The notes under the pieces: model-generated | Told to the model about the DNA's origin: nothing | Databases searched by the model: none | Seen by the model: the letters and a program-made list of their open reading frames with translations, nothing else | Shown: positions 2,351-56,568 of the stretch, piece by piece | Layout: every line of letters starts with the position of its first letter | Position numbering within the stretch: the first letter of the stretch is position 1 | Origin: a virus | Lineage: Duplodnaviria; Heunggongvirae; Uroviricota; Caudoviricetes | DNA length: 64,000 nt | Direction: 5' to 3' (one strand) | Virus record (IMG/VR): IMGVR_UViG_3300020576_002769 | Span: 17,985-81,984 of that record | Translations under genes and position numbers: made by a program

Positions 2351-2572
2351 TTATCTTCGTCTTCCACCGTAATAATGATGGTGATGAGGATTTGAAGGAT
2401 AAACATAAACCGGGGTAATAATTGGTTGATAAGTATATGGGGTGTAAAAATGATATACACGTCTTGGTCTTGGTTCCGGTCTTTGACGAATACCGTAAGA
2501 ATATACTACGGCCTGATAACCTTCACAAGAAGTTAAAACGACCAACATTAAAAGTAATAAAAATTTTTTCAT
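2351..2572 (-). CDS. small lipoprotein with His-rich C-terminus
   Basis: MKKFLLLLMLVVLTSC lipobox. Start taken at the internal Met of the track ORF. The overlapping plus ORF 2422-2625 is treated as spurious. Confidence 0.45.
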   Translation of the reverse strand: MKKFLLLLMLVVLTSCEGYQAVVYSYGIRQRPEPRPRRVYHFYTPYTYQPIITPVYVYPSNPHHHHYYGGRRR

Positions 2573-2652: not shown

Positions 2653-2898
2653 CTATTTACGTTCATTGATAATTTGTTCAACATATTTATCTCTTTGTTC
2701 CAACAAATATTCGGTACGTTCAATTAATCTTTGTCTTTCACCGTCAGTTAATTTAAGTATTAAATCTTCCTTTTCCTTAATCATTTGTTTATATTCGTTC
2801 ATCTGAGATGTGAATACCATATTTTGATAATACATTATTCCGACTAATAAAATAATCGTAAATGATTGTTCTTTTAATTTTGATAAAAATTCATTCAT
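2653..2898 (-). CDS. hypothetical coiled-coil protein
   Basis: ORF that abuts the next gene. Confidence 0.4.
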   Translation of the reverse strand: MNEFLSKLKEQSFTIILLVGIMYYQNMVFTSQMNEYKQMIKEKEDLILKLTDGERQRLIERTEYLLEQRDKYVEQIINERK

Positions 2899-3287
2899 TA
2901 TTTTTTAATTGTTTTTACCGGGAATCCGAAATTATCCTCAAACCATTCAGCTAAAATAGGTTTCCATCTATTACCAAATAAATTTTCAAAGGTATCATAA
3001 TCGTCATCAGAATAAATCATAAGTATAGGAGATTCTTCAACTAATCTTTTAATTTTTTCTTCATTTTCATTACCAAAATCATCAGTTAACCAATAATCTT
3101 TTGAGTACCATCTAAACAAGTCTCCGTCATCACTAAAATTACCGGCATAAAATACTGCACCAATATCTGTTTCATTACCATCATCATCGAAGGCATAAGA
3201 CCAATTGATTTTATCAGGTTCATATTTGGAATTGATATATTTTAAAATATAATCATAAACCCTGTTTTCAGATATAATAAATTTCAT
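2898..3287 (-). CDS. hypothetical protein, MKFIISEN N-terminal family
   Basis: N-terminus MKFIISENRVYDYILKYINS. Upstream ATATTTATAGAT-ATG. Confidence 0.5.
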   Translation of the reverse strand: MKFIISENRVYDYILKYINSKYEPDKINWSYAFDDDGNETDIGAVFYAGNFSDDGDLFRWYSKDYWLTDDFGNENEEKIKRLVEESPILMIYSDDDYDTFENLFGNRWKPILAEWFEDNFGFPVKTIKK

Positions 3288-3289
3288 AT

Positions 3290-3796
3290 CTATAAATATA
3301 ACAATGAATCAATTTCATTTCCAATCTTCTTATAGACCGGACAATCCCGGTGAGGTTCTCTTTTCCCTATCGGAGTCTTAATAATTTTAACACCTAAGGA
3401 TTCAAATTTTTTGTAGTAGTTTTTAACTTTTGTATAAGTAATTCGTTTAACATTACCCCATCCCCAAGAACCCTGAACAACGTAAAGTTCGGCGTTTGGA
3501 AATGTCCTCCGGATTGTATTAATTAATGTTGAGATTCCCAAATCTAAATATCGGTCATTTGTCCCAATTGATATTACAATATTACAGATATCCGGGGAAA
3601 TTCGGTGGTTTTTAACCATTTTTGTTAGTTTTGGGACATTTATTCCTTTTTTCCATAGTCCAACACCTTTTTTAATTTTTGTTGAATGTAAATCAATATA
3701 TGGAGTTTGAGAGTCACCAATAATAAGATTGGGGTATGTTTGAGCATACCCCAAAGTTGAAAGTAATATTAAAAAATAAAAAAAATATCTAACCAT
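3290..3796 (-). CDS. secreted SGNH/GDSL-family hydrolase (esterase)
   Basis: Signal peptide MVRYFFYFLILLSTLGYAQ. Block I IIGDSQT (GDS). Block III GTND. A D..H-like block EPHRD. Confidence 0.65.
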   Translation of the reverse strand: MVRYFFYFLILLSTLGYAQTYPNLIIGDSQTPYIDLHSTKIKKGVGLWKKGINVPKLTKMVKNHRISPDICNIVISIGTNDRYLDLGISTLINTIRRTFPNAELYVVQGSWGWGNVKRITYTKVKNYYKKFESLGVKIIKTPIGKREPHRDCPVYKKIGNEIDSLLYL

Positions 3797-4082
3797 TTAA
3801 TTTAACAATTTTACCATTCTTCATCATAATTTTTATTACACTATTTTCTTTCGTAAAGAAAGGAAAAAAACCCTGAATGGTGTGTGCGAAGGTATCGACT
3901 GGTATTAATTTATTATCCATTAACCTTATTGAAGCTCTACCCTCATTTTCAAGGAAAACATTATAATCTTTAATGTTTTTAAATATGATTTCATATTTTC
4001 CTTTTTTCGTGATTCTGATTACGAATGATACATCCGGATATAATTTTTTTACTATTATTCGTAAAGATTCTAATTTATCCAT
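3789..4082 (-). CDS. hypothetical protein
   Basis: ORF of 97 aa. Confidence 0.4.
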   Translation of the reverse strand: MDKLESLRIIVKKLYPDVSFVIRITKKGKYEIIFKNIKDYNVFLENEGRASIRLMDNKLIPVDTFAHTIQGFFPFFTKENSVIKIMMKNGKIVKLNG

Positions 4083-4083
4083 T

Positions 4084-4281
4084 TTATTTTTCTCTACCCC
4101 AAGTATAATGAATTATTTCACCATTAACAAATTCTTTCCAATATTTTTTCCAAGGACCGGAAAATAATATCGTCATACATCCGTTGCTATTAGCGATTCT
4201 GTGATATGAATCCCGGGGAAAAAACATTAAAGTTTTTTCTCGTCTAACGATATGATACTCACCGGTGGTCTCATCATCCAA
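4084..4281 (-). CDS. hypothetical protein
   Basis: ORF of 65 aa. Confidence 0.35.
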   Translation of the reverse strand: MDDETTGEYHIVRREKTLMFFPRDSYHRIANSNGCMTILFSGPWKKYWKEFVNGEIIHYTWGREK

Positions 4282-4310
4282 GATGTGTTCGTCATACTCA
4301 CCAAATAGTT

Positions 4311-4469
4311 TTACCGACCAAGCATTAAATGAGTAATACCTTCATAATCGCACGGATACATAGTTTCCATTAATTTGTCAAGAAAAAATTCAACTTTACT
4401 CAATCTTCTTTTTATTGAAGAATCCATCTCCAATAATTTGTATTGTCTTTCTGTTATAATAAGTTTCAT
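4311..4469 (-). CDS. small protein (52 aa), MKLIITE N-terminal family
   Basis: Not in the track (<60 aa). Translates as MKLIITERQYKLLEMDSS... Preceded by ATATTTATTTAT-ATG. Confidence 0.4.
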   Translation of the reverse strand: MKLIITERQYKLLEMDSSIKRRLSKVEFFLDKLMETMYPCDYEGITHLMLGR

Positions 4470-4652
4470 ATAAATAAATATCCCCCCACTCTAAAAAAAA
4501 AATGACGAAATTTTTAATTAAACTATCAGACTTGATATGGTTACTAACAAACTAATCTTAATTTGTGTTTTACCCAACCTAAAATTTTTAATACATTAAT
4601 GTTAGGTATTTATATTAAAGTCATAACATGACATAACATTAAATTTAAAATT

Positions 4653-6158
4653 ATGAAAAAATTATTATCAATTTTATTTTTGTTAATTACATTAACATTA
4701 ATGTCTCAGACCGTAACTTATCAAACAAATAATTCGGTTATTTCTAACCCGGAAAAAGGGTTTTATCACTACACATCAACAGGTTCCGGCGGTGGGTATA
4801 ATTTACTAAACCAAACTACATTATCAGGGTATAGAACAAACGAAAATATCACCGTAATACAAAGACAATTCTTTTTACGAGATTTTATTACAGGAATTCC
4901 AATTACATCAACATATCTTACAAATATGCAAACCGATTTTAATAGAATCAGAAATGCCGGAGCTAAAGTAATTGTTAGATTTACATACACATCTTCAAGT
5001 TCTTATACAGTATTCCAACCAACAAAGGCTCAAATACTTGCCCATATTCAACAACTAACTCCGGTGGTAAATGCTAATAAAGATATTATAGTTGCTATTC
5101 AGGCAGGTTTCATTGGTAAGTATGGAGAATGGTATTATACCGGTTCTTCAGAATTTGGTAATGGGAACTACACCATATTAACTACGACACAATGGAACAA
5201 CAGAAAAGAAGTAATGGATAGGATGATTAATTCATTTGACATTTCAATCCCGTTACAATTAAGGTATCTATATGCTAAACAAAAAATGTATGGTAATACT
5301 TATGTTGGTCGAATAGGTTTTTATAATGATTCTTTCTTAGGAACATATGGGGATAGTGGGACATTTCTTGTTAGTGGTTCTCAAGGACAACCAAGTACGG
5401 CTGACGTAACCTATTGGCAAAATAACACCATAAATAACCCTGTAAGTGGTGAGAGTAATATGGTTAATTCTCCAAGAACAGATTGTCCAAATGCTATGAT
5501 TGAAATGGACAGATTTAATTGGAGTCTTATTAACAAAGATTATTTCCCTACGGTCATTTCTAACTGGCAAACAAATGGTTGTTTTACAACTATGCAAAGA
5601 AGTTTAGGATATGATTTTAGATTAAACAGTTCAAATATTACAAATGGTATTTTAACTATTAATATTGGTAACTATGGATATGCTAATTTGTTTAAAGATA
5701 GAAAAGCGTTTCTTGTATGTAAAAACACGACCACCAATGTTAATTACTCTTTCTTGATTGATTCGAATATCAAAAATTGTTCTACCACAAGTTATAACAT
5801 AGTGACGAATTTAACAACTTTAGGCTTACCGGTGGGTTCTTATAAACTATATCTTAATTTACCTGACCCTTTGTTAAATAATATCAATTATTCTATTAGA
5901 ACATCCAATTTAAATTTATGGACCACTGAAGGTTTTAATGATTTACAACAAACATACAGAGTATCAACCCTTACAATAAAAAACAACCGAGTTGATATTG
6001 AGGATGATAAAATTGTTAAAGTTAGAATATACAATTTATATGGTCAATTAATTTCAGAAGATTTGGATTTGTCTGTTTTAAATGAAGGTCTTTATATTAT
6101 GGTTGGTCAAACAATGACAAATAGAACTATCACTAAAAAATTCTATAACAACAAATAA
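4653..6158 (+). CDS. secreted glycoside-hydrolase-like protein with T9SS (Por) C-terminal sorting domain
   Basis: N-terminal signal peptide. The C-terminal ~70 aa (KIVKVRIYNLYGQLI...LNEGLYIMVGQ...TKKF) match the type IX secretion C-terminal-domain pattern. The NPEKGFYHY start resembles the Bacteroidota DUF4874/DUF4832 glycoside-hydrolase-like family (from memory). It is one of the few plus-strand genes. Confidence 0.7.
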   Translation: MKKLLSILFLLITLTLMSQTVTYQTNNSVISNPEKGFYHYTSTGSGGGYNLLNQTTLSGYRTNENITVIQRQFFLRDFITGIPITSTYLTNMQTDFNRIRNAGAKVIVRFTYTSSSSYTVFQPTKAQILAHIQQLTPVVNANKDIIVAIQAGFIGKYGEWYYTGSSEFGNGNYTILTTTQWNNRKEVMDRMINSFDISIPLQLRYLYAKQKMYGNTYVGRIGFYNDSFLGTYGDSGTFLVSGSQGQPSTADVTYWQNNTINNPVSGESNMVNSPRTDCPNAMIEMDRFNWSLINKDYFPTVISNWQTNGCFTTMQRSLGYDFRLNSSNITNGILTINIGNYGYANLFKDRKAFLVCKNTTTNVNYSFLIDSNIKNCSTTSYNIVTNLTTLGLPVGSYKLYLNLPDPLLNNINYSIRTSNLNLWTTEGFNDLQQTYRVSTLTIKNNRVDIEDDKIVKVRIYNLYGQLISEDLDLSVLNEGLYIMVGQTMTNRTITKKFYNNK

Positions 6159-6172
6159 TCTATTATAAAAAA

Positions 6173-6199
6173 TCCCCCAATCTAATTAAAGATGGGGGA
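6173..6199. terminator. bidirectional terminator hairpin
   Basis: TCCCCCAATCTAATTAAAGATGGGGGA flanked by A/T runs, between convergent genes. Confidence 0.5.
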
Positions 6200-6204
6200 T
6201 AATT

Positions 6205-6486
6205 TTATTTTTCCTTTAAGGTTCCGGGATGTATGTAAGAATCTTCAAAGGAGTCCGTTGAAACAAATTCACTCCTCATATATTCTATCACTTTTTCGAG
6301 TAATTCATAATCTTTTACATCACCTCGTTTATGACCGGCCTTAATTAGTAATGAAATTCCGGCCGATAAAATCATAGTAGAATCTTCAACACCTAATCCT
6401 CGTTGGTCTTTAGGGACTTGGATATCAAAATACGCTCTACCATCATTACCTCGTTTATGCTTAATAGTGATTGACGCTTCATCCAT
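6205..6486 (-). CDS. hypothetical protein
   Basis: ORF of 93 aa. Confidence 0.4.
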   Translation of the reverse strand: MDEASITIKHKRGNDGRAYFDIQVPKDQRGLGVEDSTMILSAGISLLIKAGHKRGDVKDYELLEKVIEYMRSEFVSTDSFEDSYIHPGTLKEK

Positions 6487-6487
6487 C

Positions 6488-6703
6488 TTACATCATTTCA
6501 ATATAATACATAGAATTTTTATTGGAATAACAACTTCCGTCCCGGGAGTCGTACCATTCACCACTTACTTTATAAATGTCGAATTTTTCACCGGTAATCT
6601 CATCAAATCGAGATTCAATTTTTTTAATGGTGTCTTCACCTGAATTTTGTTGTGCCATCGAGGTATAACCATCGATATATACTTTATCACCTACTTTTGC
6701 CAT
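6488..6703 (-). CDS. hypothetical protein
   Basis: ORF of 71 aa. Confidence 0.4.
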   Translation of the reverse strand: MAKVGDKVYIDGYTSMAQQNSGEDTIKKIESRFDEITGEKFDIYKVSGEWYDSRDGSCYSNKNSMYYIEMM

Positions 6704-6704
6704 A

Positions 6705-6905
6705 TTATAATAATGTTACAGATTCTTCCGGACACTGATATAATTGATTATCGTCGTCCGCTCTAACTATATAATCAATACCTTTTCTTTTCACTATGGA
6801 AAATGGATTCTCCCATTTCCTAATTTGTTCCACAACACCGGTGAATGGATTTTCTTCGTGAGGTACCTTAACCTTTACTTTTGAATTAACTTTAATTTTA
6901 CTCAT
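6705..6905 (-). CDS. hypothetical protein
   Basis: ORF of 66 aa. Confidence 0.4.
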   Translation of the reverse strand: MSKIKVNSKVKVKVPHEENPFTGVVEQIRKWENPFSIVKRKGIDYIVRADDDNQLYQCPEESVTLL

Positions 6906-6910
6906 AACGT

Positions 6911-7339
6911 TTACAATTGTATTGGTAATAATTTCTCAGGTAGATATTGTTCCGGACATACGATGGTAACACTATCAAGGTAACCGGTATATTCTAATAA
7001 ATTATCAGTTTCTATAATATCTCTATCAGTATAGTTTAAAACTATATATGGCGTTTTAACACTATTATCGATTTTGATTCTGGCTAATTCAAAATCAAAT
7101 TGAATGAATCGATATTCTCCTTTCACATTACCCATTAATTTAATAACAGTTTCAGTTGTTGTTTGACTTCGGTATGAACCGGCAATCAAGAAATAAGAAC
7201 CATAGGAATTCGTTTCTGTTACATCACGATTTACTAATTGTCTTAAATAAATTTTTTCACTATGTTGTTGTTTTTCAGGTGGAAGAGGTTGACATCCAAT
7301 CATAAATAACACAACAAATAATCCCAATAATTTTTTCAT
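6911..7339 (-). CDS. lipoprotein
   Basis: MKKLLGLFVVLFMIGC lipobox. A host-type -7 box lies upstream. Confidence 0.5.
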   Translation of the reverse strand: MKKLLGLFVVLFMIGCQPLPPEKQQHSEKIYLRQLVNRDVTETNSYGSYFLIAGSYRSQTTTETVIKLMGNVKGEYRFIQFDFELARIKIDNSVKTPYIVLNYTDRDIIETDNLLEYTGYLDSVTIVCPEQYLPEKLLPIQL

Positions 7340-7365
7340 ACAATTATGTTTTAAATTTTACGGGA

Positions 7366-7373
7366 CAAAGATA
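7366..7373 (-). promoter_or_regulatory. Bacteroidota-type -7 promoter box (TATCTTTG) for 6911-7339
   Basis: The coding strand reads TTTTATCTTTGTCCCG about 30 nt upstream of the ATG. Confidence 0.4.
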
Positions 7374-7382
7374 AAACAAAAA

Positions 7383-7406
7383 TCCCGATAAAAAAAATTA
7401 TCGGGA
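7383..7406 (-). terminator. terminator hairpin after 7414-7683
   Basis: TCCCGAT-AAAAAAAATT-ATCGGGA stem, then a U-run on the minus-strand RNA. Confidence 0.5.
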
Positions 7407-7413
7407 CATTTTT

Positions 7414-7683
7414 TTATAAGAGTGTTTTAACATTTAGTTTATGATGGGATTCGAACCATTCTTTTAAGTATATTTTAAATTCATCAATATCAACATTAAA
7501 CATTGGTCCAATATCAGTTTCAGCCCATATTGTATCAAAATACAATATGCTATTATTAATATCAAACATTATTTTTGATGAATCACCACCGGGAGAATAC
7601 CCATCGTTAATATTATCAAATTTAAGTTCTTCCCCTTGAAATCGTGTGAAATATTTAAATAATAATTCTTTTTTCTTATCCAT
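7414..7683 (-). CDS. hypothetical protein
   Basis: ORF of 89 aa. Confidence 0.45.
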   Translation of the reverse strand: MDKKKELLFKYFTRFQGEELKFDNINDGYSPGGDSSKIMFDINNSILYFDTIWAETDIGPMFNVDIDEFKIYLKEWFESHHKLNVKTLL

Positions 7684-7714
7684 AATATAAAATTAATAAT
7701 TTTCTTAAAAAGAA

Positions 7715-8230
7715 TCAAGAAATTTTAACACCCAAATTAGGATACCCTTTTTCTATTTTGAAATCTTCAAGAATATTTTTTATAACACTCCAACTATCTA
7801 TATGATATCCACCACGTCTCAACACCACAAAAACTTCTGGGTCATCATTAAGTGTTTTTTCGTCATAACGGACTGAATGGATAACATTACCGGCAGATGA
7901 TTCTCTTAATCTTTTTTTTAATTCCGGAAGAAACTTTTTACCGAATTGTTGTTTGTTTTTATAATGAACTGAAATACTTAAATATCCAATATTAAACATA
8001 TTTTTAGTAGAACCGTGATTTAATTTAGATTGGATGGTACCTCTATAAGGAATTACACCTTTAACAACTTCTTCCGCATCAATCCAAACTTTACATCCAA
8101 AGGATTCTGCACCATAATATCTACAAGGATACTCGTAACTTCTAACATCTTTATAACCCTGTTCTAAAATAGAATCCACAAAATATTGAATTCTTTTCGG
8201 TAATTCTTCGTAAGTTTTATATTCTATCAT
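7715..8230 (-). CDS. hypothetical protein
   Basis: ORF of 171 aa. Confidence 0.45.
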   Translation of the reverse strand: MIEYKTYEELPKRIQYFVDSILEQGYKDVRSYEYPCRYYGAESFGCKVWIDAEEVVKGVIPYRGTIQSKLNHGSTKNMFNIGYLSISVHYKNKQQFGKKFLPELKKRLRESSAGNVIHSVRYDEKTLNDDPEVFVVLRRGGYHIDSWSVIKNILEDFKIEKGYPNLGVKIS

Positions 8231-8232
8231 AA

Positions 8233-8592
8233 TTAATTCCAGGAACTCGGTATTGCAATATGGTTAATTTCATTAATAATTCCTAACTTAATTAAGATAG
8301 GGATTGCTTCAGTACCACCCTCAAATTGTAAAAAAGGTAATATCATCTGTAATGGTAATATATCATCACCGGTTTTTTCCCAAGGTAATGAAAACACTCC
8401 CATAAATGAATAAAATTCTTTTGGTGATAGTTTTAATCTACCCGGATATTCTTTATCGACACGGGCAACTGATTTACTATTTTTTACCCAAGTAACTGTA
8501 TTTTTTTCAATAACACATTCTAAATCACAATAAATGGTTGATAAATATTGTTTCATTAAAATTTCTAAATTTTCATTTATAAGAACACTCAT
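8233..8592 (-). CDS. hypothetical protein
   Basis: Start taken at the internal Met (MSVLINEN..) of the track ORF. Confidence 0.4.
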   Translation of the reverse strand: MSVLINENLEILMKQYLSTIYCDLECVIEKNTVTWVKNSKSVARVDKEYPGRLKLSPKEFYSFMGVFSLPWEKTGDDILPLQMILPFLQFEGGTEAIPILIKLGIINEINHIAIPSSWN

Positions 8593-8665
8593 ATAGTAAA
8601 ATTTCAGCAAATATACAATATTTTTTTAACACACAAAAAAAAATCCCATAAAATGATGAGATTAT

Positions 8666-9043
8666 TTATATTTCTTCTTCAACAAAGTTATCAATAATAA
8701 ATTTTAGAGAAATACCAAACATACTAAGTCCCATAAGAGATAATAGTTCGTAGTCCTCAATACGTACACCATAAGTATCATTATAATATCCACTATAAAT
8801 GTGCCACTCCCTGTTTTCACGTTGTTGAGCCAACCATATACCGTTTTCCGGAGTACGAAACCAATACATAGGTCCCCATTCATTCAATAATTTATTAAAT
8901 CTTTCTTTACTCGGAAACATATAACGACAATCAACCGGGGCTCCCTCCCAACTTGTTATCATTTCAATTCTATCCGACAAGTTATACCCCAACGTTTTGT
9001 TGATTAAATTTAATAATCTGTCCTCAGTTATTGTAATTTTCAT
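8666..9043 (-). CDS. hypothetical protein, MKITITED N-terminal family
   Basis: N-terminus MKITITEDRLLNLINKTLGYNLSD. Upstream GTATTTATTATT-ATG. Confidence 0.5.
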   Translation of the reverse strand: MKITITEDRLLNLINKTLGYNLSDRIEMITSWEGAPVDCRYMFPSKERFNKLLNEWGPMYWFRTPENGIWLAQQRENREWHIYSGYYNDTYGVRIEDYELLSLMGLSMFGISLKFIIDNFVEEEI

Positions 9044-9058
9044 AATAATAAATACCCG

Positions 9059-9370
9059 TTAGGACTGAATATACTTAATATCAACACCAAAATAGGTTTC
9101 AAACCAATTTTTGATTACCGATTCGGCTTGAGATTCATCCGGAAAATAAAGGGTTGCAAAATTTCGAATAAAATCATTATCAACATATAATCGTCCGTCC
9201 TCATAATCATATTCCATTAAAACTTCAGACAAATCATAATCATCCATATTTTCCGATGGATAATATATAATAATAAAATTATCAAACGAAGATACGTTAT
9301 ACCCAATGAGTTTATTCAGATAATTTATCTGCAAGTCCAAAAGTTTATTTTCAGAAATTATAATTTTCAT
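9059..9370 (-). CDS. hypothetical protein, MKIIISEN N-terminal family
   Basis: N-terminus MKIIISENKLLDLQINYLNKLIGYNVSS. Upstream ATATTTATTGTT-ATG. Confidence 0.5.
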   Translation of the reverse strand: MKIIISENKLLDLQINYLNKLIGYNVSSFDNFIIIYYPSENMDDYDLSEVLMEYDYEDGRLYVDNDFIRNFATLYFPDESQAESVIKNWFETYFGVDIKYIQS

Positions 9371-9408
9371 AACAATAAATATCCGGACAATTCAAAACGT
9401 GGGGATAA

Positions 9409-9783
9409 TTATAATTCAATAAGTCGTAATCCTTCCAACAATCCGACTTCTAAGGCTTCTTCCCAAGAATTATATCTATAATTTTTAACAGGTATCTCAC
9501 CCATTACAGAATAAGTATAATAACCGATTTCAATGTAACCGGTAAATCTAACCGGTTGAACATACACGTCGATGTTATGAACTTCTCTCAACCATTTCTG
9601 TAATAAGGATTGGGTAGGTCTTGCAATACTATCATCACTTGAATTATTACATTTTACGGCACCTTGTTTGGAAAACTTCCAACTCGACGCCGGTTCAATC
9701 CACCATCTACCATCACAAGGAATATTAAAACCTTTTTCTTTTGCCAACTTGGCAGTTTCAAACTCAATTAATTGTTCGTTCAT
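9409..9783 (-). CDS. hypothetical protein
   Basis: ORF of 124 aa. Confidence 0.45.
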   Translation of the reverse strand: MNEQLIEFETAKLAKEKGFNIPCDGRWWIEPASSWKFSKQGAVKCNNSSDDSIARPTQSLLQKWLREVHNIDVYVQPVRFTGYIEIGYYTYSVMGEIPVKNYRYNSWEEALEVGLLEGLRLIEL

Positions 9784-9785
9784 AA

Positions 9786-10142
9786 TTAAAAATAAATCAA
9801 ATCCTTACCAATCGTTCTTTTGAATTCCAATTCAATCTCGGGAACCGGATTATCTTTATGTAAATGACCATCCTCACCGGACCACCCCATATCTCCGGAA
9901 TAATACTCAACCAATTCATTACCATCTCGACTTCTCCAATCAATAAAATGTAAATCAATTAAATTATCAGGTTCGCTTTCCCAAGCATAAGATTTTAATG
10001 ATAAAGTTTCTTCTCTAACATATTCGTTACCCTTATAAACAATCCAATCTTTATATTCAACTCTCCTTGTCGGAGTTCTTGTTACATTCATTTCCATAAT
10101 CAAGACCAAATTGTAAATAAAGCAATACCCAAAACCATACAC
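9786..10142 (-). CDS. hypothetical protein
   Basis: ORF. The true start may be an internal Met. Confidence 0.4.
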   Translation of the reverse strand: MYGFGYCFIYNLVLIMEMNVTRTPTRRVEYKDWIVYKGNEYVREETLSLKSYAWESEPDNLIDLHFIDWRSRDGNELVEYYSGDMGWSGEDGHLHKDNPVPEIELEFKRTIGKDLIYF

Positions 10143-13127: not shown

Positions 13128-13659
13128 ATGTGAGACATCGATTGATTCCCCCAATATAATTCATTATAATTCCCATATGAATTTATATGAACAATACGAA
13201 AACTCAAAAATCGGGGGTGAAAACGATAAGATAAAAACAATCAATGATATCATAACCCAATACCCAAAAATAATCGACTACTTATATAACCGAATAGACA
13301 CCTGTTTCGGAAAACATATTGTATATGTTGTTCATATGAGGGTAGATAATATTGATATGATTAAAATAGGTTACACCAAAAATTCTGTAACCGGAAGATT
13401 CTCAGAAAAAAGATGGACAGACCATCATAAAATAGATATTGTGGAAATATTAAGAGAAAACACCCTTCAAGCAAAAGGAGCGGTGGATTTCGAAAAAGAA
13501 TTAAAATCACAATGTTCTCAATATACTATTAATTCAAACCTAAAACTCCCGGGAAAAAATGAATTTATGGATTTTAATAATAAAAATAACATACTATCAA
13601 AATACGACAACCTATTTCCAATTTACGAATCCATTATAGGATTAAAATCCCCCAACTAA
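13099..13659 (+). CDS. GIY-YIG-like (T5orf172-type) domain protein
   Basis: HIVYVVHMRVDNIDMIKIGYTKNSVTGRFSEKR. The true start may be the internal Met near 13177. Confidence 0.5.
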   Translation: MDNDRRESGLCETSIDSPNIIHYNSHMNLYEQYENSKIGGENDKIKTINDIITQYPKIIDYLYNRIDTCFGKHIVYVVHMRVDNIDMIKIGYTKNSVTGRFSEKRWTDHHKIDIVEILRENTLQAKGAVDFEKELKSQCSQYTINSNLKLPGKNEFMDFNNKNNILSKYDNLFPIYESIIGLKSPN

Positions 13660-13673
13660 CAAAAGAGGGAGAA

Positions 13674-14288
13674 TCAATCAAATCGAATTATTCTATATTC
13701 CTCAGTATTGGGATAAAATTCAACATTCTCATCATACTCCTCTTGTGATAAACTACGACACTTATCCAAAATATCCTTAATACCTCCATTACAAATGGTA
13801 TATCCTCGTTGAACATATTTCTGAACTCTCCTTAATGAATCAAATACATACAAAGGTTCCAAATGATTTATAACAATCCTCTTATGATGAACATCCAATA
13901 ATCCCGATGGACTACATAACACCTTCTCACCATCATACATAAACTGACATACCGTAAAATCAAACGAATCCAAAATACTCTCAAAAGTTTCATACTCCCG
14001 ATATATAATCTGAACCTTAATCTTCCCCTTCTTATAGGTCCTCAAGTTATCGTTGAAATAAACCAACCGATACCCCTTACCCTTAGTCAAATTCAAATTA
14101 ACAAATTCATCCAAGTCAGACTTACTCAATCCAAAGATATCAATATCATTGTACTTCTCACCAAATAAACTATCCCGAACACTCCCACCGGCAATAACAA
14201 CATTCAACTTCTTACCATCAACATCCTCAAACTTGAAGTCAGGTAGTTTAACCAACAACCCCTCCTTAGGTAATTCACAATATTTCAT
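13674..14288 (-). CDS. minimal class-II (Pol-beta superfamily) nucleotidyltransferase, CCA/poly(A)-polymerase head-like
   Basis: VVIAGGSVRDSLFGEKYNDIDIFG (GGxVRD..D.D) plus a degenerate RRDFTxNA-like SFDFTVCQF. Confidence 0.55.
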   Translation of the reverse strand: MKYCELPKEGLLVKLPDFKFEDVDGKKLNVVIAGGSVRDSLFGEKYNDIDIFGLSKSDLDEFVNLNLTKGKGYRLVYFNDNLRTYKKGKIKVQIIYREYETFESILDSFDFTVCQFMYDGEKVLCSPSGLLDVHHKRIVINHLEPLYVFDSLRRVQKYVQRGYTICNGGIKDILDKCRSLSQEEYDENVEFYPNTEEYRIIRFD

Positions 14289-14290
14289 AA

Positions 14291-14596
14291 TTAGAATTTT
14301 AAATCTGAAACATAAGTCTCTAACGATACCAATGGAATTATCTCTTTCATCCTATCAAGATTTCCAATACCATCAACAGCATCCCATCCATATCTTTCCC
14401 CCGCATTGAATGACTTTACAATCTCAGGAATAAGTGGAGTTGTTTGTGTTAAAATTTCTTTTAACCCTTCTAACACCCCCAAACATTTATGAGCATCAAT
14501 CATATTATTTTCCTTTTGATAAAACCTAACATCTTTCTCTAATGTCTCAATTCTTCCCTCAATAAACTCTCGGTCTATAATAACGTATTTATCCAT
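14291..14596 (-). CDS. hypothetical protein
   Basis: ORF of 101 aa. A TATCTTTG -7 box lies upstream (plus-strand ccacaaagata at about 14612-14622). Confidence 0.4.
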   Translation of the reverse strand: MDKYVIIDREFIEGRIETLEKDVRFYQKENNMIDAHKCLGVLEGLKEILTQTTPLIPEIVKSFNAGERYGWDAVDGIGNLDRMKEIIPLVSLETYVSDLKF

Positions 14597-26248: not shown

Positions 26249-26604
26249 AACTCCCCCATCATACCTGCTAAACCCATACCTTCCCAATCTAATGAACCGG
26301 GTGACACAAAATAAACAGCATCCGGTTCTATATTGAGTCTGTTTTTAACCCACCAAGATACTAACATATTCTCCTCAATATCTTCAAATGAGAAAAGTCT
26401 TATAGAACTTATAAATCGTTCAGATACATAAAGATTATTTTGTTTTTTTGACCATCTCATAACAATATCACCATCATCATCAATTAATAATGTCTGTGGA
26501 TGGCCATCTAAGTCAAAATCTTTTCTTGTCAATTCACTTAATTTATCATCCAAGATACGATAAGCTAATTGTTTTCTCTTATCTTCAGTTATTAATATTT
26601 TCAT
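26245..26604 (-). CDS. hypothetical protein, MKILITED N-terminal family
   Basis: N-terminus MKILITEDKRKQLAYRILDDKLSELT. Confidence 0.5.
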   Translation of the reverse strand: MKILITEDKRKQLAYRILDDKLSELTRKDFDLDGHPQTLLIDDDGDIVMRWSKKQNNLYVSERFISSIRLFSFEDIEENMLVSWWVKNRLNIEPDAVYFVSPGSLDWEGMGLAGMMGEF

Positions 26605-31570: not shown

Positions 31571-32416
31571 TTACTTTACGTTCATCAAGAACTTTTCACC
31601 TCCGTTGGCCATATAAGTCGGAACTTGCGCTCCACCTGATTTCCAAGCTTCAATCCATTGTTGTTGAAGTAACATAGGTGTTAAGGTTTGTTGTCTTAAT
31701 CTATTAGATTCGGCTTCAGCTCTAGCATTTGTTAATAATGCCTCAGCGTTACCATTAGCTGTCGCTACCTTAATTTTTGCTTCAGCTTCAGCCTGTTTAA
31801 CTTTATTCTCAGCCATTAATGCCGCTTGGACTGCATTATTCTTAGCGTTAATCGCTTTCTTAAATGAATCCGGATACACCAAATTAGAGGTGAACTGATT
31901 AATTATGAACCCTTCTTTAAGTAATTGTGTTTCTAACAATCGTCTAACTTCAACTTCGAATTGTTCTCGATTTCCAATCAAACCATCTGCGGTATATTTG
32001 TTAGTCGCCAAACGGAATGCGTCATATACTGCGGTTTTTAAGAATCCTTCCTCAATTTCACTCAAACTTCTTCTGTATTTAGCAAAGATTGTAGGAACTT
32101 TTTCCCTTTGAACCGAATAGTTCATAATTGGCGAAACACTAAATTCAGAACCATCTTTACTATTTACCACAAAAGAATTGTCTCCAGTATATTCTTTGTG
32201 TTGAATAAATGTTGGGAATTCATAAATTTTGGATGTGAATGGATTATAAAATGCCCATCCCGTTACTTCTGTAACATCATTTACCCCTTTACCACTTCCG
32301 TACATATCAACTTTGACACCCACGTGACCCGCGTCGATTCTTTCACAAGAATTCATCAAAAATAAACTAGCGAATACTAAAACAATCGCCCCTAAAATAA
32401 AACTACCTCTACTCAT
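31571..32416 (-). CDS. SPFH/band-7 (stomatin/prohibitin/HflC-like) lipoprotein
   Basis: Lipobox LFLMNSC. SPFH-like core. C-terminal Ala/Glu-rich helix AQAALMAENKVKQAEAEAKIKVATANGNAEALLTNARAEAE. Confidence 0.65.
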   Translation of the reverse strand: MSRGSFILGAIVLVFASLFLMNSCERIDAGHVGVKVDMYGSGKGVNDVTEVTGWAFYNPFTSKIYEFPTFIQHKEYTGDNSFVVNSKDGSEFSVSPIMNYSVQREKVPTIFAKYRRSLSEIEEGFLKTAVYDAFRLATNKYTADGLIGNREQFEVEVRRLLETQLLKEGFIINQFTSNLVYPDSFKKAINAKNNAVQAALMAENKVKQAEAEAKIKVATANGNAEALLTNARAEAESNRLRQQTLTPMLLQQQWIEAWKSGGAQVPTYMANGGEKFLMNVK

Positions 32417-35714: not shown

Positions 35715-36748
35715 TATATATAATCACCAAACATTTCGTTAATATATTTTTGAGTTAAACTCCAATCAGCATAATCCGGGATTCTAAAATCCAACCAAGG
35801 TTCTTCACCTTCTTGCATTAAATTTTCCATCATATCAACCCATTTCCCCCAATTCTCAAAACAGTTATCAGTATAACCCCATAAAGACCTATCACTAACG
35901 TATTTTAATATTGAGTTTTTTAATTCATTTGGGTTAAATTTAAGAACATAATGTTCTATAAGTTTTTCCTGGTTGTATCTTGATGGTATTGCCTCCCATT
36001 TAGCGGAAGAAGTATCAAAAAAAGTACTTAACTCACTCATAACATCATCATAAACTTCACTCTCATACGCACTATTATAAGCATTGTCGTGAATACTATA
36101 TAATTCACTTCTCAATTCATCTAAATAACCCTCATCCATAAGATAATTCATTGATTCTTCATCGCTAATAACATCACCAACATTTTCCGGTGTTAGATAA
36201 AAAATATCATCTTCAGAATAATTGTTAAATAAATCAGGAGAACTATCATCAACTTCAACTTTCCAATTGGTTAATATGTCCAACATATATTTTTTAAGTC
36301 GTTCAATATTCTCATTATCTAAAACATCTATCACATCACGATAAACGTCATCAGTTGTATCCCAATAACGTTCCATCGATTCTTCACCCAACACATATTT
36401 AACAGCATTTCTTGTTGAGCCATCTCGTCCTTCTCTTGGGTCAAATAAATCTGCCAAAGATTCTCTGTCAGATAGTTTTAAATAATACTCATTATTTTCA
36501 AATACAACGTCGTTAAACTGATTTATACATTTAAGTAACGTATCTTTATCATTGACAACATTTAATAAAAAATATAATATTTCATTTTGATAATCTGATA
36601 AATCACTACTAAATGGGTCAATAAGGTTAATAACACCTTTTTTATTGAAAAATTTTAAGATATTTTCAACATTATCAAAAAATGGGAGTAATTCCTCTAT
36701 TTCACCATTGTTAAATTCATTTACGTATTTTAAGTATTTTTCTTCCAT
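35714..36748 (-). CDS. hypothetical acidic protein
   Basis: ORF of 344 aa. Confidence 0.45.
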   Translation of the reverse strand: MEEKYLKYVNEFNNGEIEELLPFFDNVENILKFFNKKGVINLIDPFSSDLSDYQNEILYFLLNVVNDKDTLLKCINQFNDVVFENNEYYLKLSDRESLADLFDPREGRDGSTRNAVKYVLGEESMERYWDTTDDVYRDVIDVLDNENIERLKKYMLDILTNWKVEVDDSSPDLFNNYSEDDIFYLTPENVGDVISDEESMNYLMDEGYLDELRSELYSIHDNAYNSAYESEVYDDVMSELSTFFDTSSAKWEAIPSRYNQEKLIEHYVLKFNPNELKNSILKYVSDRSLWGYTDNCFENWGKWVDMMENLMQEGEEPWLDFRIPDYADWSLTQKYINEMFGDYI

Positions 36749-37269
36749 TATTGTTTACTTGTATATTCAGGTCTAAAAAAGATTACTTTAATTCCGGTTT
36801 TTGATGTTACAACTTCTTTGAAGTAATCATTCACACCCAGATTAACTTCATCTTCAATTTCCCATCCGTAATCTTCATTTTTTAATGCTTCTGATAATTT
36901 ATATGTATTACCATCAAATATTGTAACTTCACCACTTAAATCATCAACCTTAACTTTAACTGTGACAAATGGTTCATCATCATCAACACCCCACTTCTTA
37001 ATATCAGTTACCTCAAAAAAGAAATCATATCCACCAAAATCATCTATGTGATGTGGGTTCTGAAGTAATATGGTATTTGCAAGGTTTTTTGATTCCTCAA
37101 TACCTCTCCACTCAATAAGATATTTGTAGGCTTGTTCGTAAGTAATATCATTGTTTTCGTTATCCAATCCAAAATTAAGAATAAATTGTCTATTAATATC
37201 ACCCCCAAACTTATCAAAGTATCGGAATATTATGTTTTTGTATTTAGATTCGGTTATAATGAATTTCAT
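36748..37269 (-). CDS. hypothetical protein, MKFIITES N-terminal family
   Basis: N-terminus MKFIITESKYKNIIFRYFDKFGG. Confidence 0.5.
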   Translation of the reverse strand: MKFIITESKYKNIIFRYFDKFGGDINRQFILNFGLDNENNDITYEQAYKYLIEWRGIEESKNLANTILLQNPHHIDDFGGYDFFFEVTDIKKWGVDDDEPFVTVKVKVDDLSGEVTIFDGNTYKLSEALKNEDYGWEIEDEVNLGVNDYFKEVVTSKTGIKVIFFRPEYTSKQ

Positions 37270-50300: not shown

Positions 50301-51041
50301 TTATTGTTCCATTGTTGGTTTTAACCATAACCCACTATCTTTGAAGATGTATGTTTTTAATGTTGGAAATTCATTAAGAACTTTTAAGGTTTCCAAGGTG
50401 TCGTGTTTGAAACACTTAAATAATTCCTCCCTAATTCTTTCGGTTGACACCACACTCATCTTTTCATCGTAATTATAAGATTCGATTGTGAGTGCAATTG
50501 TTCCCGGAATCGTAAATCCTTTTGTAATTGAGAATCTGATTGCTCTTAAAATTCTAAGCGGGTCATCATTAAAAGTCACTTCAGTTGGCAACGGAGTTCT
50601 TAAAATTTTATCTCTTAAATCTTCAAGTCCATTGAAGAAGTCGATAATTTTACCATCCTCATCTTTAGCTAAAGCATTTAATGTAAAATCTCTTCTTTCC
50701 AAATCATCATATAATGTCCCTGGCTTAACGATTGGTGTTCTTGTTCCCGGAATGTATCCAACTTCTTTACGAGCCATTACGAAATCCGCAACCCCACTAT
50801 ACTTGTGGTCTTTTGGGAACATCGCTCTAATGGTAAAACAATCCGGAGTGATTAAGAAAATTTCAAATTTAGTTTCACGTAAGAATGTAACTAAAATTTC
50901 AAACATTTCCTCAGCTTCGGTATATTGAGATAATAATGAGTCATTAGGTACCGCAACGTAATCCACGTCTTTGGATTTAAGACCTAAAATCTCATCTCTA
51001 ACTTTTCCACCTACCTCGTAAAATCTAAATAAATTCTCCAT
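50301..51041 (-). CDS. truncated class-II tRNA nucleotidyltransferase (CCA-adding/poly(A)-polymerase head+neck)
   Basis: YEVGGKVRDEILGLKSKDVDYVAV, TIRAMF, ARKEVGY..GTRTP, DDLERRDFTLNALA, DFFNGLEDLRDKILRT, DDPLRILRAIRFSITKGF. At 246 aa it lacks the body and tail domains. Confidence 0.8.
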   Translation of the reverse strand: MENLFRFYEVGGKVRDEILGLKSKDVDYVAVPNDSLLSQYTEAEEMFEILVTFLRETKFEIFLITPDCFTIRAMFPKDHKYSGVADFVMARKEVGYIPGTRTPIVKPGTLYDDLERRDFTLNALAKDEDGKIIDFFNGLEDLRDKILRTPLPTEVTFNDDPLRILRAIRFSITKGFTIPGTIALTIESYNYDEKMSVVSTERIREELFKCFKHDTLETLKVLNEFPTLKTYIFKDSGLWLKPTMEQ

Positions 51042-56202: not shown

Positions 56203-56568
56203 TTGCGTATTTATATGTATATGGAACTAATAATAAATAAAAACAAATTCAAAGTCAAAACTGTAATATCATCAAAAGACACTAGTCGAGGTATGATGAA
56301 CAAAAAATTTGACGATACATTTAACGGTATGTTATTTATTATGTCTGAAGGACAACACTGCTTTTGGATGAAGAATTGTATTATACCACTCGATATTATT
56401 TTCATCGACAATGGTATTATAACAAAAATTCACCACAATTGTCCCCCTTGTAAAAGTAAGGAATGTAAGAACTACTGTGGTGAAGGTGATACTATCCTTG
56501 AAATTCAGGGAGGTACTTGTAAAGAGTTGAATATTAAGATTGGTGATTCAATTCATTCGTTAGATTAA
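56203..56568 (+). CDS. DUF192-family protein
   Basis: FWMKNCIIPLDIIFIDNGIITKI matches the DUF192 core (from memory). The true start may be an internal Met at 56215 or 56221. Confidence 0.5.
   Translation: MRIYMYMELIINKNKFKVKTVISSKDTSRGMMNKKFDDTFNGMLFIMSEGQHCFWMKNCIIPLDIIFIDNGIITKIHHNCPPCKSKECKNYCGEGDTILEIQGGTCKELNIKIGDSIHSLD

Follow-up and report, generated by a model that had tools for sequence, protein, structure and literature searches.

A large-phage DUF4874/DUF4832 protein with a Sec signal peptide and a T9SS type-A-like C-terminal domain

[quoted passage not shown] 2020, PMC7468147). The cargo genes of Cryophage belong to flexible genome regions that undergo recombination, and otherwise near-identical phages differ in the alleles that they carry. 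It was the one precedent found for phage-encoded T9SS cargo, in agreement with the original prediction for the locus described here, which had called such cargo rarely reported. In addition, the proteins of Porphyromonas gingivalis phages that have Sec signals exposing an N-terminal Gln were read as an adaptation to export in Bacteroidota (PMC10367356).

The window analysed in this study, a stretch of DNA of 64,000 nucleotides, is assigned to a large, uncultured phage whose host would be Flavobacterium-like (Bacteroidota). Its phage has in common with Cryophage a gene for a (here predicted) glycoside hydrolase with a (here putative) T9SS type-A sorting domain, and the allelic variation of the Cryophage cargo genes has its counterpart here in a tract covering codons 193–287 of the glycosidase gene. 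The two systems differ in the type of phage (76 kb in the case of Cryophage, contigs of 106–433 kb with an early-region-like gene content here) and in the enzyme family (endoglucanase, GH39 and PA14 versus DUF4874/DUF4832). Moreover, the copies considered here come from more than 100 phage variants in one clade and have a shortened tail; the likeness to Cryophage is one of description, not of sequence comparison. The P. gingivalis phage proteins share the Q-rule signal peptides with the exported proteins of the window, but no T9SS tag was reported for them and their function was not assigned in that study (PMC10367356), whereas the glycosidase described here has a putative tag. Phage T9SS cargo is already known from Cryophage; here, a gene for predicted cargo of this kind is conserved across more than 100 large-phage variants.

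The assignment of the window to a phage is based on its gene content and its relatives in IMG/VR. The window consists of dense one-strand arrays of small open reading frames (ORFs) without bacterial housekeeping genes. It encodes endonuclease VII, several homing endonucleases, PNKP, Thg1 and phage-only PHROGs, and its other proteins match large or jumbo phages only; such content is typical of the accessory regions of large phages. IMG/VR contains one contig that is 97–100% identical to it and ten further contigs with the gene, and a 430-kb relative is also viral. Meanwhile, no capsid, portal, terminase or other virion hallmark was seen in the scanned ORFs of the 64-kb window, nor was there a DNA match to deposited phage genomes, as would be expected if the region were a bacterial chromosome or another mobile element and the gene an ordinary bacterial T9SS cargo. 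In view of the gene content and the viral relatives, and since the true chromosomal homologues look quite unlike the window, we give this origin hardly any credence. The Flavobacterium-like host is suggested by the chromosomal sister clade of the glycosidase, the Q-rule signal peptides and a GC content of ~30%.

According to the JGI gene calls, the glycosidase gene is the sole plus-strand gene between ~1153 and 13012. The gene and its flanks are organised as follows:

4470–4652, no strand: AT-rich divergent intergenic region of 183 bp upstream of the glycosidase gene
4653–6158, plus strand: gene of the predicted T9SS-tagged glycosidase, a 501-aa pre-protein with a signal peptide, a DUF4874/DUF4832 body, a beta-sandwich and a T9SS type-A-like C-terminal domain (CTD)
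4653–4706, plus strand: Sec/SPI signal peptide, residues 1–18 (MKKLLSILFLLITLTLMS), from a hydrophobic-core heuristic, with predicted cleavage exposing Gln19
4710–5612, plus strand: predicted (beta/alpha)8 barrel, residues ~20–320, with Glu159 and Glu267
5229–5513, plus strand: recombination tract, codons 193–287, from the comparison with contig L005
5613–5936, plus strand: beta-sandwich, residues ~321–428, the C-terminal part of DUF4832, with a conserved G(F/Y)NDL motif at its end
5937–6155, plus strand: seven-strand CTD, residues 429–501, read as a T9SS type-A sorting signal
6165–6212, no strand: GC-rich hairpin (AUCCCCCA...UGGGGGAU) with A- and T-runs on its flanks, from sequence and folding

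Both ORFs to which the original prediction had drawn attention, 4653–6158 and 3290–3796, are in place, and the peptide strings that it quoted are present. The cleavable signal peptide that it had ascribed to the first of them is borne out by the N-terminus, MKKLLSILFLLITLTLMS followed by QTV, which has the features of a typical SPI signal and places Gln at +1; by the heuristic test, its n-region is basic, its core is hydrophobic, and positions −3 and −1 are occupied by small residues. The cleavage pattern, (S/A/C) before Q, is kept across 84 members of the glycosidase family. Gln at +1 after the signal peptide is usual in Bacteroidetes (PMC5837995), and the predicted exposure of Gln19 fits this Q-rule.

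The promoter of the glycosidase gene is presumed to lie within 4470–4652. No Shine–Dalgarno sequence was seen in this region upstream of the gene, and the sigma-70 scan of it performed no better than on shuffled sequences; in contig L005, a 1.9-kb insertion is found just upstream. On the other side, the hairpin at 6165–6212 separates the convergent genes 4653–6158 (plus strand) and 6205–6486 (minus strand). It folds with a dG of −17.1 kcal/mol (z −2.48) and is likely a bidirectional intrinsic terminator. It should be noted that the consensus terminator scanner missed this hairpin because its loop is longer than 8 nt.

The resemblance of the body to the DUF4874/DUF4832 glycoside-hydrolase-like proteins, proposed earlier from the letters of the sequence, was confirmed by profiles that score far above their gathering cut-offs. 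DUF4874 (PF16173) covers residues 32–206 (E = 1.6e-37, 129.0 bits, cut-off 30.1) and is followed by DUF4832 (PF16116) at residues 220–419 (E = 3.7e-38, 131.9 bits, cut-off 29.2). The AF2 model of the 501-aa protein (pLDDT 89.8) is composed of a barrel, a sandwich and a seven-strand tail, and its body models as a clan-GH-A-like TIM-barrel glycosidase of predicted retaining type. Namely, the barrel with glutamates after strands 4 and 7 that is characteristic of clan GH-A is matched in the model: Glu159 (nt 5127–5129) stands after strand beta4 (146–150) and Glu267 (nt 5451–5453) after strand beta7 (264–266), the strand positions being those of the model. Both glutamates are invariant in 37 sequences and are the putative acid/base and nucleophile. 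Clan GH-A enzymes canonically have Asn-Glu as the acid/base motif where beta4 ends, whereas the phage protein has Gly-Glu (G158-E159, in GKYGEW) eight residues past the strand; for this reason we describe it as GH-A-like and assign it to no GH family. The structural neighbours of the model belong to GH5, GH14 and GH30 and comprise endoglucanases, mannanases and amylases, with an identity of only 4–16% to GH5 endoglucanases and mannanases and to GH14 beta-amylases. No solved structure was related to the body at the sequence level, and no biochemistry of DUF4832 was found in the literature.

The C-terminal domain was compared with the two models of the T9SS type-A tail, which have curated cut-offs of 27 bits (PF18962) and 23 bits (TIGR04183). 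The full 501-aa protein scored 17.0 and 12.5 bits, respectively, and its last 90 residues alone scored 22.7 bits (E = 1.3e-4) and 20.8 bits (E = 2.9e-4). Thus, the sorting-domain match claimed in the original prediction, which had proposed the TIGR04183 search, holds as far as the E-values are significant, but the scores of the single protein stay under the curated cut-offs, and the case for T9SS is made by family-level and motif-level evidence. Among the 44 family tails, 38 matched PF18962 and 42 matched TIGR04183 with E ≤ 0.01 (best E-values of 1.8e-13 and 2.2e-13), and the tails also matched several other T9SS-specific NCBIfam models. The single-sequence search of the tail against 1.84 billion proteins returned nothing beyond fragments of this family and a single repeat artefact. 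Meanwhile, the profile of the family tails matched the solved T9SS CTDs 8glk_D (4.3e-6), RgpB, HBP35, RemZ and mirolase. With a profile built from phage tails only, the CTDs of 8glk_D and RgpB were the top three of 177,635 PDB sequences, and the alignment covered 59 of 64 positions, with Gly464 placed onto RgpB Gly699. In the HMMER alignment, IYNLYG464 corresponds to FDMNG699 of RgpB, G479-L-Y481 to NGVY, and K496 to the beta7 lysine. The equivalent of motif D in the tail is formed by Gly479, Tyr481 and Ile482, while the C-terminal motif consists of Lys496 and Phe497 (Ile in 89% of family copies), after which comes the four-residue extension YNNK. Seven strands lie between residues 429 and 499 (pLDDT ~86–93), as predicted secondary structure without superposition on a solved CTD.

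In RgpB, the substitution G699R blocks secretion and the beta7 lysine region is required, while C-terminal extensions are tolerated; CTDs can also be species-specific (PMC11285876). In HBP35, motifs D and E suffice for secretion, and the N-terminal motifs A and B, although conserved in the CTD family, are reported to be dispensable (PMC10202324). The phage tails lack these PNP-type motifs, and their profile match begins at model position 10–11, indicating that the phage tail is a trimmed variant. The missing motifs, the single-protein scores below the cut-offs, the reduced length of the phage tails and a weak match of the first half of the tail to NHL/WD40 proteins of the repeat type would also suit a module without a present role as a T9SS signal, be it a relic or a generic domain of the Ig-like or carbohydrate-binding type; the enzyme would then be periplasmic or reach its substrate only at lysis. 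However, the pattern of conservation is unexpected under decay. In 101 phage copies, the identity of the tail is only 40% compared with 72% for the body, yet G464 is kept in 100%, Y481 in 99%, G479 in 98%, I482 in 96%, and L476 and K496 in 91% each, and the conserved positions are those experimentally shown to matter (PMC11285876, PMC10202324). In addition, the tail has no mismatches between the window and the otherwise near-identical contig L005, and nearly all family tails match TIGR04183 along with the other T9SS-specific models. We therefore consider a relic tail unlikely. In the 501-aa protein, the sequence evidence supports each part expected of a T9SS type-A cargo, from the Sec signal through a folded, glycoside-hydrolase-like body to the sorting domain at the C-terminus. 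What the analysis shows is this domain anatomy, the homology, the phage context and the conserved sorting motifs; the secretion itself, and the substrate, timing and benefit discussed below, are inferred.

The chromosomal homologues of Flavobacterium, with identities of 50% and 40%, share the body of the phage protein and likewise carry a CTD, and the catalytic candidates are all invariant in them. The proteins of F. lotistagni (NZ_JAAJBU010000006, 547 aa) and of a Flavobacterium metagenome-assembled genome (MAG; JANOPO010000021, 545 aa) have the same style of signal peptide and the same body as the phage protein. The group of F. lotistagni and P0116 contains a Thr/Pro-rich linker, which the phage proteins and the MAG copy lack. 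The MAG copy has a full-length CTD with an N-terminal PNP-type motif and scores 48 bits, above the cut-off, while the tail of F. lotistagni scores 18 bits, below it. The chromosomal tails are 96–119 aa long versus 53–74 aa without the PNP motif in phages, and in one phage subclade the tail has only ~54 residues. The context-verified phage copies all belong to one clade, the sister of which is the chromosomal Flavobacterium group. Judging from these sequences, and with ~50% identity to the chromosomal sister clade, the gene came into phages by capture from Flavobacterium and would afterwards have spread among phage contigs of 106–433 kb as a mobile accessory gene. The related phage loci do not share the genes that surround the glycosidase. 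When the window was compared with contig L005, all 36 differing codons of the gene were found within 193–287, 23 of them synonymous and 13 non-synonymous; this recombination tract spans beta5–beta7 and the loops around Glu267.

As for the substrate, the MAG gene is adjacent and convergent to a cluster whose products are a GH114 enzyme, a membrane protein and a DUF2194/deacetylase-like protein; in Gram-positives, pel loci are accompanied by DUF4832 genes (10.1101/768473). Where the original prediction had suggested that the host capsule or surface glycans could be remodelled, for superinfection exclusion or progeny release, these two observations, a single bacterial locus and an association from the literature, hint at an exopolysaccharide instead. 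Alternatively, the protein could be a T9SS-secreted auxiliary metabolic enzyme that digests environmental polysaccharides and feeds the infected cell during the long cycle of a large phage. Digestive glycosidases are common among the T9SS cargoes of Flavobacterium, the structural neighbours of the model are enzymes of this kind, and the chromosomal copies of F. lotistagni and P0116 lie amid housekeeping genes and not in an exopolysaccharide locus. Nevertheless, no SusC/SusD or other uptake genes stand alongside the gene in phage or bacterium, the GH114/DUF2194 cluster and the pel association point away from nutrition, and an allelic tract over substrate-facing loops is more like variation of the host-range or receptor type. 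A nutritional role thus has a rather small chance of being correct.

The second ORF of interest encodes a smaller exported protein:

3290–3796, minus strand: gene of an SGNH-fold enzyme, 168 aa, signal peptide residues 1–18 with cleavage between A and Q, no T9SS tag

The earlier description of this product as a signal-peptide SGNH protein proved correct. Its signal peptide, MVRYFFYFLILLSTLGYA, is followed by QTY, and the protein has the three-layer alpha/beta/alpha SGNH fold. The residues of SGNH blocks I, II, III and V (G27-D28-S29-Q30, G51, G78-x-N80 and H149) do not vary among 45 sequences, including the catalytic and oxyanion residues Ser29, Gly51, Asn80 and His149. Block V reads (D/E)-P-H, with the acid at −2 from His and not in the DxxH spacing, and in some members the acid is replaced by Asn. 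The protein had no Pfam or NCBIfam match, and one of the 45 homologues weakly matched Lipase_GDSL_2 (E = 0.0067); by sequence, the family is best described as a divergent member of the superfamily without a curated profile. Its best structural match is the peptidoglycan O-acetyltransferase domain of OatA. The C-terminal domain of OatA, Ape1 and PatB, which are SGNH enzymes adding O-acetyl groups to peptidoglycan or removing them, are 13–19% identical to the phage protein and have DxxH in place of (D/E)-P-H, and carbohydrate and sialate esterases score nearly as high as these three.

In the reading implied by the original prediction, the glycosidase and the SGNH esterase would act jointly on a single O-acetylated polysaccharide of the capsule or surface. 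The two genes are indeed separated by 860 bp and belong to a cluster encoding four exported proteins, and carbohydrate O-acetylesterases are numerous among the structural neighbours of the SGNH protein. However, since this protein has no CTD, it is expected to stop in the periplasm, in a different compartment from the glycosidase. Of the 13 phage-context loci that carry the glycosidase gene, 11 have no SGNH gene within ±10 kb of it; the two occur together only in the contig of the window itself and in L005. The SGNH family was seen only in phage-like contexts, and its gene belongs to a conserved phage block of its own (SGNH, 129 aa, 371 aa, ClpP). Moreover, fusions to peptidoglycan-binding domains in 3 of 45 homologues, together with the OatA match, point to peptidoglycan and not to the capsule as the substrate. 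We therefore abandon the linked pair, and regard joint action on one polysaccharide as improbable.

The explanation that we favour as a whole, and hold to be reasonably probable, is a captured, T9SS-exported phage glycosidase with a separate SGNH function. An ancestral phage would have acquired the gene from the chromosome of Flavobacterium, where it encodes a DUF4874/DUF4832 enzyme secreted by T9SS; in the phage, the copy would have lost the Thr/Pro linker, its sorting domain would have been trimmed to ~55–75 residues, and the gene would have passed among large phages by recombination. During infection, the glycosidase pre-protein would be exported by Sec, cut by signal peptidase I before Gln19 and folded in the periplasm. 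The host T9SS would then recognise the C-terminal domain and transport the protein across the outer membrane, where the tag would be removed and the enzyme released or attached to the surface. The most likely substrate would be an extracellular polysaccharide made by the host (biofilm matrix or capsule), the cutting of which may release the progeny or remove a receptor or barrier. The SGNH protein would fulfil a separate phage function in the periplasm, most likely the removal or transfer of O-acetyl groups on peptidoglycan.

A virion-associated depolymerase, such as a tail spike or fibre domain used for adsorption, is a very remote prospect: a Sec signal and a T9SS tag would take the protein away from the cytoplasm, where virions are assembled, structural genes are not nearby, no N-terminal tail-attachment domain is present, and the architecture is the same as in the bacterial secreted homologues. 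A more far-reaching version of the favoured T9SS export, which we put forward tentatively, is that a large freshwater phage clade (contigs up to 430–505 kb) routinely uses the host T9SS with a tag pared by selection to a minimal ~55–70 residues, and that recombination of the loops retargets this captured, uncharacterised enzyme to the exopolysaccharides of different host strains. If true, the enzyme would represent a secreted, non-virion depolymerase system, and the phage tails would be a natural deletion series defining the minimal type-A T9SS signal.

The region was also said to contain lipoproteins, and both ORFs concerned have lipobox-type N-termini:

2351–2572, minus strand: small putative lipoprotein, 73 aa from the ATG start (MKKFLLLLMLVVLTS before C; LTS before C), pattern match only
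6911–7339, minus strand: putative lipoprotein, 142 aa (MKKLLGLFVVLFMIG before C; MIG before C), pattern match only

The product of 6911–7339 had no family match in the profile searches. The C-terminus of the product of 2351–2572 is rich in His, Tyr and Arg.

The two open reading frames (ORFs) of the original prediction, 4653-6158 (+), coding for a 501-aa putative glycosidase, and 3290-3796 (-), coding for a 168-aa SGNH protein, are present in the window exactly as described. The Pfam analysis of the 501-aa protein identified the domains DUF4874 (E 1.6e-37) and DUF4832 (E 3.7e-38). The PDB sequence search with this protein returned no related solved structure, the PHROGs search gave no match, and the literature on DUF4832 and DUF4874 offered no functional data except an association with pel loci. 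DUF4874/DUF4832 proteins are widespread, and none is known to have been studied biochemically. The AlphaFold model of the protein, built on 37 homologues (pLDDT 89.8), shows the following parts:

N-terminus: signal helix
Residues ~20-320: (beta/alpha)8 barrel
Residues ~322-420: beta-sandwich
Residues 429-499: third module, all-beta, of seven strands

The N-terminus is a standard SPI signal (MKKLLSILFLLITLTLMS/QTV). A small residue followed by Gln at position +1 is conserved in 84 family members, a pattern that matches the Q-rule of Bacteroidetes (PMC5837995). The C-terminal tail had been predicted to be a type IX secretion system (T9SS) sorting domain. Both relevant profiles did match it: PF18962 scored 17.0 bits with the full protein and 22.7 bits (E 1.3e-4) with the tail alone, and TIGR04183 scored 12.5 and 20.8 bits (E 2.9e-4), respectively. 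The profile match whose absence would have refuted the prediction thus exists, but it lies below the curated cut-offs of 27 bits (PF18962) and 23 bits (TIGR04183), and the 501-aa protein alone would escape automatic T9SS annotation.

Four lines of sequence comparison appear to close most of this gap. Among the tails of the family, PF18962 was found at E<=0.01 in 38 of 44 and TIGR04183 in 42 of 44 (best E ~2e-13), and several other T9SS-specific NCBIfam models matched as well. The profile built from the family tails matched solved T9SS C-terminal sorting domains (CTDs) as single domains, namely 8glk_D (E 4.3e-6), which is the CTD of an F. johnsoniae substrate bound to the SprA translocon, and those of RgpB, HBP35, RemZ, and mirolase. 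As a control, a profile was made of phage-type tails only; the top three of 177,635 PDB sequences were then 8glk_D and two RgpB CTD entries. In the alignment of this profile with RgpB, which covers 59 of 64 positions, the family-invariant Gly464 falls on RgpB Gly699 within FDMNGRR. Secretion is blocked by the G699R substitution and depends on the region of the conserved beta7 lysine, and it tolerates extensions of the C-terminus (PMC11285876); the critical CTD motifs are D and E (PMC10202324). Finally, the mean pairwise identity of 101 phage-clade sequences is 40% in the tail vs 72% in the body, and the tail residues G464 (100%), Y481 (99%), G479 (98%), I482 (96%), L476 (91%), and K496 (91%) are conserved. 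Such positions kept in a divergent tail probably mark a retained signal and not a decaying remnant.

The phage tail carries no N-terminal PNP-type motif, and past the conserved G(F/Y)NDL motif it extends for 53-74 residues, compared with 96-119 in the bacterial proteins; it is best described as a putative trimmed CTD. The tails of one subclade (P0080, P0084, P0089, and P0092; locus L024, on a 433-kb contig) are shorter still, with 53-57 residues past GYNDL. They lack the first two strands and keep the VKIFDMSG...GIYIVK...KIKR motifs, and are thus naturally occurring candidates for a minimal T9SS signal of type A. The phage tails would then be natural minimal sorting signals of this type in which the residues kept are exactly those essential by mutagenesis, and this ready-made series makes the question of what the T9SS reads directly testable.

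Matches of the tail profiles to WD40, NHL, and CD2 proteins were rejected, since they come from repeat proteins and either no stretch passed on its own or only the beta-hairpin 'v-k-i-Y-d-x-x-G' was covered. The search of the 72-residue tail against 1.84 billion representatives, which has little power with so short a query, gave six matches. Five were fragments of the same family, and the sixth, a giant cadherin-like repeat adhesin, was rejected as an artefact. About ten phage copies (P0008, P0010, P0014, P0018, and others, with N-termini ...VIISCQNVTY) have Cys directly before the conserved Gln. Reading their I-I-S-C-Q as a lipobox would make these variants possible lipoproteins instead of SPI substrates.

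The window belongs to a JGI metagenome contig of 106 kb, has a GC content of ~30%, and consists almost entirely of short, tightly packed ORFs on the minus strand. The recognisable genes, of a kind usual in accessory or early regions of large phages, are the following:

Polynucleotide kinase-phosphatase, Thg1, CCA-adding-type nucleotidyltransferase, and RNA ligase
NUDIX protein and radical-SAM protein
N6/N4 DNA methylase
Endonuclease VII, and LAGLIDADG, HNH, and GIY-YIG-like homing endonucleases
Several phage-only PHROGs

No tRNA, capsid, or terminase genes were found in the 64-kb window. In IMG/VR, one contig is 97-100% identical across the region, and ten further viral contigs, one of them 430 kb long, encode the same glycosidase. 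Neither megablast of 3000-8000 nor tblastn with the glycosidase and the SGNH protein gave a match among 50,697 deposited phage genomes, and among these there is therefore no cultured relative that would give direct evidence of the host. The other window proteins matched large or jumbo phages only.

Chromosomal homologues of the glycosidase with the same style of signal peptide and the same body were found in two Flavobacterium genomes, F. lotistagni (50% identity) and a Flavobacterium MAG (40%). The CTD of the MAG copy is full-length and scores 48 bits. In F. lotistagni there is a Thr/Pro-rich linker, and the tail reaches only 18 bits, short of the cut-off. P0116, another copy on a chromosome, is found in the same aconitase-to-permease setting and adjoins another T9SS cargo gene. 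The copies on contigs of 106, 112, 305, 430, and 433 kb all lie amid arrays of small unannotated ORFs. Neighbour joining on the body sequences groups all context-verified phage copies into a single clade, sister to the chromosomal group.

Within +/-10 kb, the neighbours of the gene in the window are common to no other phage locus except the near-identical contig L005. Some phages carry a second copy: L006 has another DUF4874/DUF4832 gene (13232-14380, 39% identical) and L025 a tandem DUF4832-only gene (8529-9383, 284 aa), a sign that phages have duplicated this enzyme family or captured it repeatedly. In the window, the glycosidase gene is the sole plus-strand gene within a 12-kb minus-strand run. 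It is followed by a strong 3' hairpin with T-runs on either side, which folding supports; the terminator scanner reported no terminator because the loop is 13 nt long. The sigma-70 promoter scan was uninformative (15 sites vs 14.3 expected), and Bacteroidota promoters differ from the sigma-70 model. The unshared neighbours, second copies, lone plus-strand position, and 3' hairpin show that the gene behaves as a mobile accessory cassette.

The comparison of the window with L005 revealed allelic mosaicism. The flanking genes differ by 0-0.6 mismatches per 100 nt and the signal peptide and tail by none, while the barrel has 45 mismatches. All 36 differing codons lie within codons 193-287, which span strands 5-7 and the loops around the putative catalytic E267. 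The changes are 23 synonymous and 13 non-synonymous, and a dN/dS of 0.19 together with their confinement to one tract rejects positive selection and points to recombination. The differences therefore form a recombination tract from a diverged allele and are not mutations scattered along the gene. In addition, L005 carries an insertion of 1.9 kb directly upstream of the glycosidase gene (7771-9998, between the positions equivalent to window 4329 and 4650). It replaces the window ORF 4311-4469, and its products are a 368-aa protein rich in ENGV(K/R)ET-type repeats and a pair of small multi-pass membrane proteins.

The DUF4874/DUF4832 T9SS cargo gene of the Flavobacterium MAG is convergent with a cluster on the opposite strand (L017 9645-17402, JANOPO010000021), which encodes:

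1291-aa DUF2194/DUF2334 (deacetylase-like) lipoprotein
660-aa polytopic membrane protein
GH114-family enzyme
363-aa protein without matches

This cluster looks like an undescribed exopolysaccharide locus, and in streptococci and clostridia DUF4832 genes accompany pel exopolysaccharide loci (10.1101/768473). We therefore favour the reading that the glycosidase would be a depolymerase of exopolysaccharide or capsule that reaches its target by secretion from the infected cell and not with the virion. The anatomy of the protein, with its signal peptide, body, and T9SS-type tail, is convincing; its secretion and substrate, and any gain for the phage, are predicted. The family's link to exopolysaccharide loci, together with its mosaic alleles in phages, suggests a definite class of candidate substrates.

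As the original prediction had stated, phage-encoded T9SS cargo is rarely reported. The one known report, on Cryophage, lists an endoglucanase, a GH39, and a PA14 protein and calls the case a unique occurrence; the Cryophage cargo genes are variable, like the glycosidase alleles here (PMC7468147). Unlike in Cryophage, the enzyme family is DUF4874/DUF4832, the phage type is different and much larger, and the gene is preserved as more than 100 variants, all in a single clade, on phage contigs reaching 433 kb, with a naturally minimised sorting tag. Among phage proteins, Q-rule signal peptides have been described in P. gingivalis phages. If our reading is true, phage use of the Bacteroidota-specific T9SS would move from a single anecdote to a conserved trait, and phages could reshape secretion and display by infected Flavobacterium, which would affect the turnover of biofilm matrix, the dispersal of phages, and lake polysaccharide cycling.

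The SGNH protein has a Q-rule signal peptide and no T9SS tag, so it is predicted to stay periplasmic. PHROGs gave only a weak match (E 0.0013). Ribosomal protein L10 matches in the PDB (E 4e-4 and weaker) were dismissed as chance, since the fold search was unanimously SGNH. Every context examined for this family was phage-like, and in L018 the gene sits in the block that it also occupies in the window (SGNH, 129 aa, 371 aa, ClpP, Y16D). Peptidoglycan-binding domains occur in 3 of 45 homologues, and a Tae4-type amidase is encoded near one homologue. Read most economically, the protein may edit peptidoglycan O-acetylation independently of the glycosidase. This small family, found here in phage-like contexts only, is not recognised by current profiles and may be a phage tool for such editing.

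Several other window genes deserve mention. A full tRNA repair/maturation set (polynucleotide kinase-phosphatase, RNA ligase, CCA-adding-type nucleotidyltransferase, and Thg1) maps to 21763-22680 (+), 50301-51041 (-), and 51328-52095 (-), the position of the RNA ligase ORF not being pinned down; such a set without a tRNA gene suggests a countermeasure against host anticodon nucleases. Further ORFs are:

13674-14288 (-), L001 19022-19636 on the window's own contig: 204-aa nucleotidyltransferase-like protein with a precomputed Pfam Gad2 match and PHROG nucleotidyltransferase matches, which may be an anti-defence or defence-related gene
56565-56993 (-): 142-aa protein that contains a PG_binding_1 domain (E 4e-9), lacks a signal peptide, and may be part of the lysis apparatus
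31571-32416 (-): SPFH/Band-7 protein (E 3.7e-22) with a lipoprotein-type N-terminus (...LFLMNS/C), the fifth predicted envelope-targeted phage protein in the window
2351-2572 (-): small putative lipoprotein with an unusual Pro/Tyr/Arg-rich mature part ending in HHHHYYGGRRR

The N-terminal motif M-K-(I/L/F)-x-I-(S/T/K)-E, as in MKITITEDRLLNLINK and MKLIITERQYKLLEM, is shared by 7 of 163 window ORFs of at least 50 aa that are otherwise unrelated (1153-2268, 2898-3287, 4311-4469, 8666-9043, 9059-9370, 26245-26604, and 36748-37269, all on the minus strand). The longer SGNH homologues P0203, P0216, and P0180 begin with the same motif, which may be a common N-terminal module or a targeting or regulatory tag of this phage group.
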